Part shown: positions 35,317 to 40,580 of the stretch, piece after piece
Position numbering within the stretch: position 1 is the first letter of the stretch
How the letters are laid out: every line of letters starts with the position of its first letter
NCBI RefSeq assembly: GCF_055900595.2
Contig: NZ_CM148325.1
DNA: 64,000 bases
Strand: one strand, 5' to 3'
Translations under genes and position numbers: made by a program
The notes under the pieces: model-generated
The model's input: only the letters and a program-made list of their open reading frames with translations
What the model was told of the DNA's origin: nothing
Databases searched by the model: none

Positions 35317-35371
35317 GGTGATGCTGCCAACTTACTGATTTAGTGTATGATGGTGTTTTTGAGGTGCTCCA

Positions 35372-35647
35372 GTGGCTTCTGTTTCTATCAGCTGTCCCTC
35401 CTGTTCAGCTACTGACGGGGTGGTGCGTAACGGCAAAAGCACCGCCGGACATCAGCGCTATCTCTGCTCTCACTGCCGTAAAACATGGCAACTGCAGTTC
35501 ACTTACACCGCTTCTCAACCCGGTACGCACCAGAAAATCATTGATATGGCCATGAATGGCGTTGGATGCCGGGCAACTGCCCGCATTATGGGCGTTGGCC
35601 TCAACACGATTTTACGTCACTTAAAAAACTCAGGCCGCAGTCGGTAA
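35372..35647 (+). CDS. insA: IS1 InsA
   Basis: 91-aa [46 protein letters not shown]... identical in character to IS1 InsA. Confidence 0.9.
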
Positions 35648-36069
35648 CCTCGCGCATACAGCCGGGCAGTGACGTCATCGTCTGCGCGGAAATGGACGAA
35701 CAGTGGGGCTATGTCGGGGCTAAATCGCGCCAGCGCTGGCTGTTTTACGCGTATGACAGGCTCCGGAAGACGGTTGTTGCGCACGTATTCGGTGAACGCA
35801 CTATGGCGACGCTGGGGCGTCTTATGAGCCTGCTGTCACCCTTTGACGTGGTGATATGGATGACGGATGGCTGGCCGCTGTATGAATCCCGCCTGAAGGG
35901 AAAGCTGCACGTAATCAGCAAGCGATATACGCAGCGAATTGAGCGGCATAACCTGAATCTGAGGCAGCACCTGGCACGGCTGGGACGGAAGTCGCTGTCG
36001 TTCTCAAAATCGGTGGAGCTGCATGACAAAGTCATCGGGCATTATCTGAACATAAAACACTATCAATAA
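35566..36069 (+). CDS. insB: IS1 InsB reading frame (expressed as InsAB transposase by -1 frameshift)
   Basis: 167-aa ORF overlapping the insA 3-prime end in the -1 frame, the standard IS1 organisation. Confidence 0.85.
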
Positions 36070-36084
36070 GTTGGAGTCATTACC

Positions 36085-36093
36085 TGTTACGGG
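36085..36093. repeat. IS1 target-site duplication, right copy (tgttacggg)
   Basis: Identical to 35308-35316. Confidence 0.85.
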
Positions 36094-36313
36094 TTAATTC
36101 ATCAGAATGTGCATTTGGGGTGTTGGCTGGAAGAGTCGCTGGTAGATGTTATTGTGCCAGCAGGGGCAGGGTAAGGTACTGTATCGATATGCTTTGGCAA
36201 TTGCATGTGCCGCAGATGGAGATGAAATGCCAATAAAAAAGCCTGAGTTCGATGAGGGACGAACTCAGGCTAGTGTTAAGTTTTACAGTAACACGCCGCA
36301 GCGCGTTGGCTGA

Positions 36314-37429
36314 TTAGAACTGGTAGACGATACCAACTGCAAACTGGTCATCAGCTGCTGCGCCAGTAATGGCGGCGTCATCTTTATCCAGCATGTTGAA
36401 TTTGTATGCAGTATAAACGTTCATGTTCTTATTAAAGTAGTACCAGGTACCAACTTCAATGTAGTTCACACGGTCAGCGTCAACATATCTATGTCCAGGT
36501 ACCCCTTTGATATCTTTACCTTTAGAGTACACATAACCTAAGGACGGACGCAGACCAAAGTCGAATTGATACTGAACAACCGCTTCAAAGTTCTGGGTTT
36601 CATTGATAAGTTGATCACGCATTATTGTATTGCCTTCTCGATCGGCAACACCTGTATCAATAGAACCCGGAGTCATATTACGAGTTTCGCCGTACATTAC
36701 AGCTGCGTAGACATTGTTCGCGTCATACTTTGCAGCCAACGACCACAGTTCAGCATTTGAACCGTTTCCATCGGCAACTTGATCGTTGGTGCGATCAGAT
36801 TTGCTATATGCACCAACGATACCAAAACCATTGATGTTATAGTCTACAGACAACGCATAGCCGTCACCATTTTGTTTCTTAGTGCTACGGTTGCTGTTTT
36901 TGCCTTGGTACTGAATCGCAAAATCAAGACCATCAACCAGGCCAAAGAAATCATAGTTACGGTAGGTTGCAACACCGTTGGTACGACCATTCATGAAGTT
37001 GTCAGCGGAAGCCCAGGAATCGCCACCCCATTCAACTAACATATCGGTATAAGCTGCGGCATCATAAGCAACACCGTAGTTACGGCCATAGTCAAATGAT
37101 CCTAACTCGTTATATTTCAAACCGGCGAAGGTTAAACGGGTTTTTTCCTGGTTTTCACCTTCGGGCTTGCTGGCGTCGAGGTTGTATTCAAACTGACCAA
37201 AACCAGTCAGTTCGCTGGTGATTTGGGTTTCACCTTTAACACCGAAACGAGCATAGGAGGTATCTTCGTTTTCGCTGTTATTATCATCAGTATTTGACCA
37301 GATGCGTTCGCCAACCATCTTGCCGTAGAAATCAACTTTATTGCCATCTTTATTATAAATTTCAGCCGCATTTGCTGCGCCAGCAACTAATAACGCCGGG
37401 ACCAGCATTGCCAGAACTTTTCTTTTCAT
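36314..37429 (-). CDS. yedS: Outer membrane general porin (OmpC/OmpF/PhoE family), apparently intact
   Basis: Track ORF 36314..37459; likely start [21 protein letters not shown] (signal peptide) at 37429; C-terminal ...GIVYQF typical of general porins. Confidence 0.8.
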
Positions 37430-37976
37430 TATGTATTCCCTTGTGATTATAATCTTCATGAATATATCAATAAGTGCCGTTATCCAAAAAAAAGCACATT
37501 TGGATACTATTCTATGAAGTTCATTTTATTTTAAGGATTACATGTAACAAATGTATTTAAAAGATTTCAAAATGTTTCTAATCTATTTAATATAATTCGG
37601 GATTATGAATTCTGAATATAAACATTCATGAATATTATAAATGCATATCAATAAGTTATGAGTTGAGCAGAAAGATAGGGGGTATCAATGATTGTTGCGC
37701 TAAACACCTGGTGTGATCACGCGCACATTAATGAAGGAATAAAAAAAGCCGGCATCATGCCGGCCCCAAAAATATAAACAAGACGATAAAAGGCTAATAA
37801 CGTAAGCATCATGACACAGAATAATAAAAAGGTATAATTGTAATCAGTGCTAATATATTGATTAAATGAATTAATAAAGCCGATATCAAAGATAAATAAA
37901 ATCGCTCAAAACGATTTTTCCTGTATTCACTGCCGTTGCGCAAAAATTATCTATTTGTTCAAAAAATGAGTGAGTC

Positions 37977-38360
37977 TTGACTGGCTCATCCAATGTGGAA
38001 AAATGTGACTTTTATCACATAATAGTACTAAGTCTGAATTTTCCGGGTTATCTCAAAATGGAATACGGTTCGACAAAGATGGAAGAGAGACTCTCTCGCA
38101 GCCCTGGCGGCAAACTGGCTTTGTGGGCTTTCTATACATGGTGTGGCTATTTCGTCTGGGCAATGGCGCGTTACATCTGGGTGATGAGCCGGATCCCCGA
38201 TGCCCCCGTGTCGGGATTTGAAAGCGATTTAGGCTCTACCGCGGGAAAGTGGTTAGGGGCACTGGTCGGATTTTTATTTATGGCTCTGGTCGGGGCATTG
38301 TTAGGCAGCATTGCCTGGTACACCCGACCTCGTCCCGCACGTAGCAGACGCTATGAATAA
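37977..38360 (+). CDS. yedR: Small inner membrane protein YedR (start uncertain)
   Basis: ORF with two hydrophobic segments; synteny with yedJ and dcm; the true start may be an internal GTG or ATG. Confidence 0.6.
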   Translation: MTGSSNVEKCDFYHIIVLSLNFPGYLKMEYGSTKMEERLSRSPGGKLALWAFYTWCGYFVWAMARYIWVMSRIPDAPVSGFESDLGSTAGKWLGALVGFLFMALVGALLGSIAWYTRPRPARSRRYE

Positions 38361-38399
38361 AAACTGCTAAGGTGGCGACTCTTTGGCAACGGAGCGCGT

Positions 38400-39095
38400 A
38401 TGGACTTACAACACTGGCAGGCACAGTTCGAAAACTGGTTGAAAAACCATCATCAGCACCAGGACGCGGCCCATGACGTGTGTCATTTTCGCCGCGTCTG
38501 GGCTACGGCACAGAAGCTGGCGGCAGATGACGATGTCGATATGCTGGTGATTTTAACCGCCTGTTATTTTCACGATATTGTGAGCCTGGCGAAAAATCAT
38601 CCGCAAAGGCAGCGTTCTTCAATCCTGGCGGCAGAAGAGACGCGTCGCCTGCTCCGTGAAGAGTTCGAGCAATTTCCGGCGGAGAAAATCGAGGCCGTTT
38701 GTCATGCCATTGCCGCTCACAGTTTCAGCGCGCAAATCGCCCCCTTAACAACGGAAGCTAAAATTGTCCAGGATGCGGATCGGCTGGAAGCCCTGGGGGC
38801 GATTGGCCTGGCGCGCGTGTTTGCCGTTTCAGGGGCATTGGGCGTGGCGCTGTTTGATGGTGAAGATCCGTTCGCACAGCATCGCCCGCTTGATGATAAA
38901 CGCTACGCGCTGGATCATTTCCAGACTAAGTTGCTGAAGCTACCGCAAACCATGCAAACCGCAAGAGGCAAGCAGCTGGCGCAGCACAACGCGCATTTTT
39001 TAGTCGAGTTTATGGCGAAGCTCAGTGCCGAACTGGCGGGGGAGAATGAAGGTGTCGATCACAAGGTGATAGATGCGTTTTCATCCGCTGGCTGA
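38400..39095 (+). CDS. yedJ: HD-domain phosphohydrolase
   Basis: 231-aa ORF with HD motif (HFRRV ... HDIV ... DADRLEALG). Confidence 0.8.
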
Positions 39096-39161
39096 GCGCG
39101 TGGCCCTAAATGGCTGTAATTATGTTAACCTGTCGGCCATCTCAGATGGCCGGTGAAATCT

Positions 39162-40580
39162 ATGCAGGAAAATATATCAGTAACCGATTCATACAGCACC
39201 GGGAATGCCGCACAGGCAATGCTGGAGAAACTGCTGCAAATTTATGATGTTAAAACGTTGGTGGCGCAGCTTAATGGTGTAGGTGAGAATCACTGGAGCG
39301 CGGCAATTTTAAAACGTGCGCTGGCGAATGACTCGGCATGGCACCGTTTAAGTGAGAAAGAGTTCGCCCATCTGCAAACGTTATTACCCAAACCACCGGC
39401 ACATCATCCGCATTATGCGTTTCGCTTTATCGATCTATTCGCCGGAATTGGCGGCATCTGTCGCGGTTTTGAATCGATTGGCGGACAGTGCGTGTTTACC
39501 AGCGAATGGAACAAACATGCGGTACGCACTTATAAAGCCAACCATTATTGCGATCCGGCGACGCATCATTTTAATGAAGATATCCGCGACATCACCCTCA
39601 GCCATAAAGAAGGCGTGAGTGATGAGGCGGCGGCGGAACATATTCGTCAACACATTCCTGAACACGATGTTTTACTGGCCGGTTTCCCTTGTCAGCCATT
39701 TTCGCTGGCTGGCGTATCGAAAAAGAACTCGCTCGGGCGGGCGCACGGTTTTGCCTGCGATACCCAGGGCACGCTGTTTTTTGATGTGGTACGCATTATC
39801 GACGCGCGTCGTCCGGCGATGTTTGTGCTCGAAAACGTCAAAAACCTGAAAAGTCACGACCAGGGTAAAACGTTCCGCATCATCATGCAGACGCTGGACG
39901 AACTGGGCTATGACGTGGCTGATGCAGAAGATAATGGGCCAGACGATCCGAAAATCATCGACGGCAAACATTTTCTGCCGCAGCACCGTGAACGCATCGT
40001 GCTGGTGGGTTTTCGTCGCGATCTGAATCTGAAAGCCGATTTTACCCTGCGTGATATCAGCGAATGTTTCCCTGCGCAGCGAGTGACGCTGGCGCAGCTG
40101 TTGGACCCGATGGTCGAGGCGAAATATATCCTGACGCCGGTGCTGTGGAAGTACCTCTATCGATATGCGAAAAAACATCAGGCGCGCGGTAACGGCTTCG
40201 GTTATGGAATGGTTTATCCGAACAATCCGCAAAGCGTCACGCGTACGCTGTCTGCGCGTTATTACAAAGATGGCGCGGAAATTTTAATCGATCGCGGCTG
40301 GGATATGGCCAAAGGTGAGAAAGACTTTGACGATCCGCAGAATCAGCAACATCGTCCACGTCGGTTAACGCCTCGGGAATGCGCGCGCTTAATGGGTTTT
40401 GAAGCGCCGGGAGAAGCGAAATTCCGCATTCCGGTTTCGGACACTCAGGCCTATCGCCAGTTCGGTAACTCGGTGGTCGTGCCGGTCTTTGCCGCGGTGG
40501 CAAAACTGCTTGAGCCAAAAATCAAACAGGCGGTGGCGTTGCGTCAGCAAGAGGCACAACATGGCCGACGTTCACGATAA
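39162..40580 (+). CDS. dcm: DNA cytosine-5 methyltransferase (CCWGG)
   Basis: C5-MTase motifs FAGIGG (motif I), GFPCQPFS (motif IV, catalytic Cys) and ENV (motif VI); start MQENISVTD at 39162. Confidence 0.9.

Follow-up and report, generated by a model that had tools for sequence, protein, structure and literature searches.

The hairpin and the 31-codon hydrophobic reading frame upstream of yedS overlap the known small RNA gene rseX

The locus lies in a window of 64,000 nucleotides (the whole stretch of DNA analyzed, from contig NZ_CM148325.1 of RefSeq assembly GCF_055900595.2), in which the gene order is the same as in Escherichia coli K-12: yedS on the minus strand (36314 to 37429), rseX, drpB on the plus strand from position 38058, and, beyond it, yedJ and dcm. 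In K-12 MG1655, rseX is annotated as an ncRNA gene (b4603; NC_000913.3, positions 2033649 to 2033739) located between drpB, formerly named yedR, and yedS. The window gene occupies the orthologous position, between the divergent drpB and the co-oriented yedS. In the window strain, the yedS gene beside rseX is intact and encodes a 371-aa porin of the OmpC family, whereas in K-12 it is a pseudogene. The list of open reading frames (ORFs) gives drpB as a 127-aa frame that starts from TTG at 37977, compared with 100 aa in the current K-12 annotation. DrpB translation starts at the ATG formerly numbered as codon 22 (PMC7648144), which in the window is the plus-strand ATG at 38058. The features of the rseX region are listed in Table 1.

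Table 1. Features of the rseX region, in window coordinates
Feature	Position	Strand	Basis
rseX, gene for an Hfq-binding small regulatory RNA	37741..37830	minus	Rfam RF01401 match and alignment with K-12
rseX -10 hexamer TACAAT	37837..37842	minus	Read from the sequence; -12 to -7 from the RNA 5' end
Weak RseX 5' stem-loop, nt 14 to 38	37793..37817	minus	Minimum free energy fold and Rfam consensus structure
Conserved single-stranded RseX core, nt 29 to 49, CGTTATTAGCCTTTTATCGTC; likely target-pairing region	37782..37802	minus	Conservation and complementarity to ompC
RseX terminator hairpin, GGGGCCGGCA-UGA-UGCCGGCUUU	37745..37767	minus	Terminator scan, fold and conservation
Intrinsic terminator U-tract, also the 3' Hfq-binding tail	37741..37747	minus	7 T directly after the stem
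31-codon candidate ORF, judged a chance frame and not a gene	37717..37812	minus	Chance frequency, no Shine-Dalgarno sequence, not conserved

The porins encoded at the syntenic site in other Escherichia show only 51 to 64% protein identity, compared with 93 to 97% identity for the flanking drpB, and rseX is nearly invariant. Judged by these identities, the yedS porin locus is hypervariable; PGAP names its alleles either "porin" or "porin OmpC." Between yedS and the rseX terminator lies a ~280-nt spacer (37460 to 37740, minus strand) that is very AT-rich and contains two weak promoter-like sites (37616 to 37589 and 37550 to 37523) and an 8-T run at ~37483 to 37490. It probably represents the promoter and 5' untranslated region (UTR) of yedS and is likely to be bound by H-NS. 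A copy of IS1 is found at ~35317 to 36084, ~230 bp downstream of yedS, with an exact left inverted repeat (GGTGATGCTGCCAACTTACTGAT) at 35317 to 35339, the insA frame at 35372 to 35647, and the insB frame at 35566 to 36069; K-12 has hchA after yedS where the window has this element. In E. coli strain H32 (NZ_CM184319.1), an annotated IS1 family transposase divides the drpB-rseX-yedS intergenic region in two.

An Rfam search that covered positions 36000 to 39500 of the window returned a sole strong match, to the family RF01401 (rseX Hfq-binding RNA), with a score of 95.3 bits against a gathering score of 50 and an E value of 5e-13. The match spans model positions 1 to 94 of 94 and is not truncated. 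Pairwise alignment places the K-12 rseX gene exactly on positions 37830 to 37741 of the window. The RNA is 90 nt long in the window and 91 nt long in K-12, and the two alleles differ by two substitutions within the gene and by one T in the tail. The window allele has A instead of C at nt 28, which is part of the hairpin 1 loop, and G instead of U at nt 64, which gives the terminator an additional G-U pair at its base; its tail contains 7 U residues, compared with 8 in K-12. The window gene shares with RseX of K-12 (b4603; Rfam RF01401) its position, strand relation, 5' end, core, and terminator. Judged by its sequence, the element is RseX proper and not a relative, with differences at the allele level only. 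rseX is already known, as an annotated and published small RNA (sRNA).

A 151-nt segment of the locus is present in 4,879 of the 5,426 complete E. coli genomes, and the larger intergenic region of 621 nt is present in 4,908 of them; the best match, with 100% identity, is in strain Res13-Lact-PEB01-20. The gene is variable within the species, being missing from ~10% of complete genomes (see also PMC3318445). Among the matches listed, the PGAP-annotated E. coli records have no feature under the rseX match, and because of this the gene can look unannotated.

Conservation was analyzed in a set of 19 homologues that consisted of the window, K-12, ten E. coli genomes selected to span the range of identities, and seven species representatives (E. 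albertii, E. whittamii, two other Escherichia species, two divergent E. coli, and Citrobacter amalonaticus). The representatives came from a pattern scan of a genome collection that gave 14 pattern matches. The other seven matches, in Bacteroidia, Fibrella, and other distant taxa, differ in spacing; they are chance matches and were left out. This exact-pattern scan of the collection yielded no Salmonella or E. fergusonii sequence. All seven representatives score above the RF01401 gathering threshold (70.9 to 95.2 bits), and all of them, six Escherichia genomes as well as Citrobacter amalonaticus, have the order drpB, rseX, porin.

The position of the -10 hexamer of rseX agrees with the RseX 5' end annotated in K-12. 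The -35 element is weak, TTAATC at 37860 to 37865, with three matches out of six and a 17-bp spacer. A consensus promoter scan did not report this promoter, because its -35 element falls below the threshold. A sigma-70 promoter and a primary transcript mapped by 5'-RACE are on record for K-12 rseX in PMC8313858, which cites Douchin 2006 and Chen 2002 for them. The plus strand carries a strong sigma-70-like promoter at 37811 to 37838 that faces drpB (ATGACA, a 16-bp spacer, and TATAAT, matching at 11 of 12 positions). Its -10 element (37833 to 37838) overlaps the rseX -10 hexamer on the opposite strand, and its -35 hexamer, read on the other strand, is TGTCAT, the invariant sequence of RseX nt 15 to 20. 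Competition for RNA polymerase between these divergent promoters is possible, and a promoter constraint could account for some of the conservation at the RseX 5' end. The drpB plasmid described in PMC7648144 begins downstream of the plus-strand site, so this promoter is not the only one for drpB.

As a whole, RseX does not fold better than its shuffled versions (z = -1.27), and most of its variation among the 19 homologues affects the hairpin 1 loop and the lengths of the T-runs. The loop of the 5' stem-loop (nt 24 to 28) is the most variable part of the molecule, and some homologues break one of the pairs; support for this structure is therefore modest. None of the 19 homologues, which range from E. 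coli to Citrobacter amalonaticus, shows a change in nt 32 to 49 (TATTAGCCTTTTATCGTC).

At the 3' end, an inverted repeat (GCCGGCATGATGCCGGC) on the minus strand at 37764 to 37748 is followed immediately by 7 T. The terminator scan lengthens the stem to 10 pairs. A 32-nt fold of this region has an energy of -15.1 kcal/mol, compared with a shuffle mean of -7.4 (z = -3.41; 1 of 200 shuffles was as good), and the hairpin is more than chance. The 15 Escherichia sequences that were folded share an identical stem; in Citrobacter, the outer G-C pair is replaced by A-U, a single compensatory change. The loop, AUGAU, is the same in 17 of the 19 homologues, and the U-tract varies from 6 to 8 T. The initial annotation had described a GC-rich hairpin at 37748 to 37764, followed on the minus strand by a T-run, and had read it as an intrinsic terminator. 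Both the hairpin and that reading are borne out: with its GC stem and U-tract placed at the RseX 3' end, the element is the Rho-independent terminator of RseX. The U-tail of such a terminator constitutes the 3' Hfq-binding module in sRNAs of this class. The Rfam models STnc430 (25 bits), AniS (21 bits), and C0719 (14 bits) also align to the same hairpin, with scores that lie far below the gathering scores and reflect generic terminator similarity. The loop of the terminator hairpin has been reported as necessary for the repression of fepA by RseX (PMC11979758); according to that paper, the hairpin is, besides a terminator, a regulatory element in its own right.

The candidate ORF opens at an ATGATG (first ATG at 37812, minus strand), reads MMLTLLAFYRLVYIFGAGMMPAFFIPSLMCA, and ends at the TGA at 37719 to 37717; the initial annotation had placed it correctly and proposed that it might encode a small membrane protein. 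Frames of this size are frequent. The window contains 375 ATG-initiated ORFs of at least 31 codons, and 72% of shuffles of the intergenic region (628 nt, 30% GC) contain at least one such ORF. A second reading frame is also open across the RseX stretch. The frame is no more than expected by chance. T accounts for 46 of the 90 nt of RseX, and the hydrophobic character of the peptide follows from this base composition. The ATG is only 18 nt downstream of the RseX 5' end, and both candidate start codons fall in the 5' arm of the 5' stem-loop. No purine run resembling a Shine-Dalgarno sequence is present within the 23 nt that precede the ATG (ATACCTTTTTATTATTCTGTGTC), in line with the initial remark that a clear one is lacking. 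The peptide has no match in Pfam and no meaningful match in NCBIfam (the best score is 12.2 bits against a cutoff of 569), and no coding sequence is annotated at this position in K-12 or, among the matches listed, in the RefSeq records.

Among the 19 homologues, ORFs in the homologous frame have lengths of 18, 27, 31, 36, 37, 39, 42, and more than 44 codons. This variation results from insertions and deletions in two T-runs, which shift the frame: the run at nt 58 to 63 contains 4 to 6 T, and the terminator tail contains 6 to 8. The C-terminal half is found in three different frames, even within E. coli, and K-12 reads a C terminus different from that of the window. An ATG at codon 1 or codon 2 is retained in 18 of the 19 homologues; three E. 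coli strains have ATC in place of the first ATG, and in Citrobacter the two codons read ATT ATC, which leaves no start codon. The substitutions in codons 1 to 5 are nearly all nonsynonymous and fall in the 5' hairpin loop. By contrast, nt 32 to 49 are invariant at all three codon positions. The coding reading fails because the frame is not conserved and the peptide belongs to no protein family, while the RNA features are held. Given its varying frame, length, and start codon in these homologues, together with the missing Shine-Dalgarno sequence and family and the chance frequency of such frames, the small membrane protein is rejected. The initial annotation had left the two readings in conflict and had suggested comparing the conservation of the ORF with that of the hairpin. 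In this comparison, which covered Escherichia and Citrobacter, the hairpin proved conserved and the ORF did not. The terminator reading stands, and the small-protein reading does not; what had been overlooked is that this terminator is the end of an annotated sRNA gene.

The predicted target-pairing region was compared with known targets of RseX. Nucleotides 30 to 43 form an ungapped 14-nt complement to positions -14 to -1 of ompC, including its Shine-Dalgarno sequence; 2.1% of shuffles equal this run. In the same ungapped-run test, RseX does no better than shuffles against ompA, and its duplex energies with the whole UTRs of ompA and ompC are likewise no better than those of shuffles. Restricting the energies to the translation initiation regions gives marginal values (5.8% of shuffles for ompA and 7.2% for ompC), and the ungapped-run test with ompC is the only one of these with a result clearly better than shuffles. 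Against the translation initiation region of yedS, RseX has no complementarity beyond chance (the longest run is 10, equaled by 59% of shuffles).

Published work on K-12 describes RseX as a 91-nt primary transcript with a Rho-independent terminator (PMC8313858). As PMC8313858 and PMC7648144 relate from Douchin 2006, it was isolated as a multicopy suppressor of the essentiality of rseP and represses ompA and ompC in an Hfq-dependent manner. It also binds and represses fimB and ihfB; the native RNA cannot be detected in wild-type K-12, and loss of hns, alone or together with stpA, derepresses it (PMC8313858). Both Hfq binding and the in vivo repression of targets have been published for the K-12 allele (PMC8313858, PMC11979758), and we infer that the allele of the window strain behaves like it. 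The present analysis provides the identification and boundaries of the element, its pattern of conservation, the lack of ORF conservation, and the complementarity to ompC; Hfq dependence, the targets, silencing by H-NS, and the role of the terminator loop are taken from the literature.

These data fit the following mode of action. Transcription of rseX would start at 37830, from a sigma-70 promoter with the TACAAT -10 hexamer, and would end at the Rho-independent terminator formed by the GC-rich hairpin and U-tract at 37767 to 37741. As in other Hfq-dependent sRNAs, this terminator would also provide the 3' module for Hfq binding. The U-rich core, nt 29 to 49, which is invariant and single-stranded, is predicted to pair with the translation initiation regions of target mRNAs, classically those of ompC and ompA, with fimB and ihfB as further reported targets. 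Pairing would block ribosome binding and thereby reduce porin synthesis, and the terminator loop would additionally mediate the repression of fepA. Expression of rseX would normally be silenced by H-NS and StpA. The 31-codon ORF would be a by-product of a U-rich sequence poor in stop codons, from which no functional protein would be translated. With very high confidence, the minus strand at 37741 to 37830 can be assigned to rseX, a free-standing gene for a ~90-nt Hfq-dependent sRNA that acts in trans in the manner just described. No observation speaks against this identification.

RseX shares its architecture with MicA, MicC, MicF, and RybB, namely, a target-pairing stretch and, 3' of it, a Rho-independent terminator that doubles as the Hfq-binding module. 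It also shares their action, the occlusion of the translation initiation region of an omp mRNA, as is well established (PMC8313858). Unlike these four sRNAs, RseX is not controlled by sigma-E or OmpR; instead, it is silenced by H-NS and StpA and is undetectable in the wild type (PMC8313858). A further difference is its variability within E. coli. With another group, SgrS/SgrT, AzuCR/AzuC, and Spot 42/SpfP, RseX has in common a short ORF inside an Hfq-binding sRNA. Translation has been demonstrated for all three, and conservation extends to the ORF, its reading frame, and the ribosome-binding site. The ORF of RseX, unlike SgrT, AzuC, and SpfP, is conserved in neither frame nor length and has no Shine-Dalgarno sequence.

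Two other readings give the ORF a function. In one, RseX would be a dual-function sRNA like SgrS/SgrT or AzuCR, with a transcript that also encodes a small hydrophobic membrane peptide translated from the AUG at 37812 or 37809. Such sRNAs are well established in E. coli, and the retention of an ATG at one of the first two codons, the hydrophobicity of the peptide, and the conservation of its first ~15 residues (M-x-x-x-LLAFYRLVYIF) all agree with this reading. However, the conserved N-terminal part coincides with the RNA core, which does not vary at any codon position, so this conservation is attributable to constraint on the RNA. Past codon 15, both length, from 18 to more than 44 codons, and frame, of which three are used, drift among E. 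coli strains themselves, and the substitutions in codons 1 to 5, start-codon loss included, are almost all of the kind that alters the peptide. The AUG is embedded in an arm of hairpin 1, close to the RNA 5' end, with no Shine-Dalgarno sequence, and Citrobacter has no start codon there at all. The missing family matches, the missing coding sequence in K-12 and in the RefSeq records among the matches listed, the chance expectation for ORFs of this size, and the openness of a second frame also speak against it. The dual-function reading is, in our judgment, very unlikely.

In the other reading, the segment would be a cis-acting leader of yedS, an attenuator of the pyrBI type in which translation of the ORF through the terminator hairpin lets transcription proceed into yedS. 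The two genes have the same orientation, and ~310 nt separate the terminator from the yedS start codon downstream of it (ATG at 37429); the ORF reaches at least the hairpin loop in every Escherichia variant; and the linkage of rseX with a porin gene is kept as far as Citrobacter. Against this, RseX accumulates as a separate RNA species of ~91 nt and, when expressed from plasmids, acts in trans on the unlinked ompA, ompC, fimB, ihfB, and fepA (PMC8313858, PMC11979758). Ribosome loading would have to occur without a Shine-Dalgarno sequence and, in Citrobacter, without a start codon. The 310-nt AT-rich spacer has promoter-like sites of its own for yedS, those described above; no antiterminator alternative appears in single-sequence or alignment folds; and K-12 keeps rseX despite its yedS pseudogene. 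Attenuation of yedS is exceedingly improbable. It is also conceivable, at a probability hardly worth weighing, that once silencing by H-NS is lifted, translation begins at the AUG that lies 18 nt from the 5' end of RseX and runs into the hairpin, giving a short hydrophobic peptide or read-through into yedS; if true, either product would give rseX a cis role beside its role in trans.

With the trans-acting sRNA RseX as the assigned product of this segment, the importance of the finding beyond annotation is small, and the conflict between the ORF and the terminator is settled in favor of the terminator. U-rich sRNA genes readily yield hydrophobic pseudo-ORFs, and a check against Rfam is advisable before small proteins are proposed.
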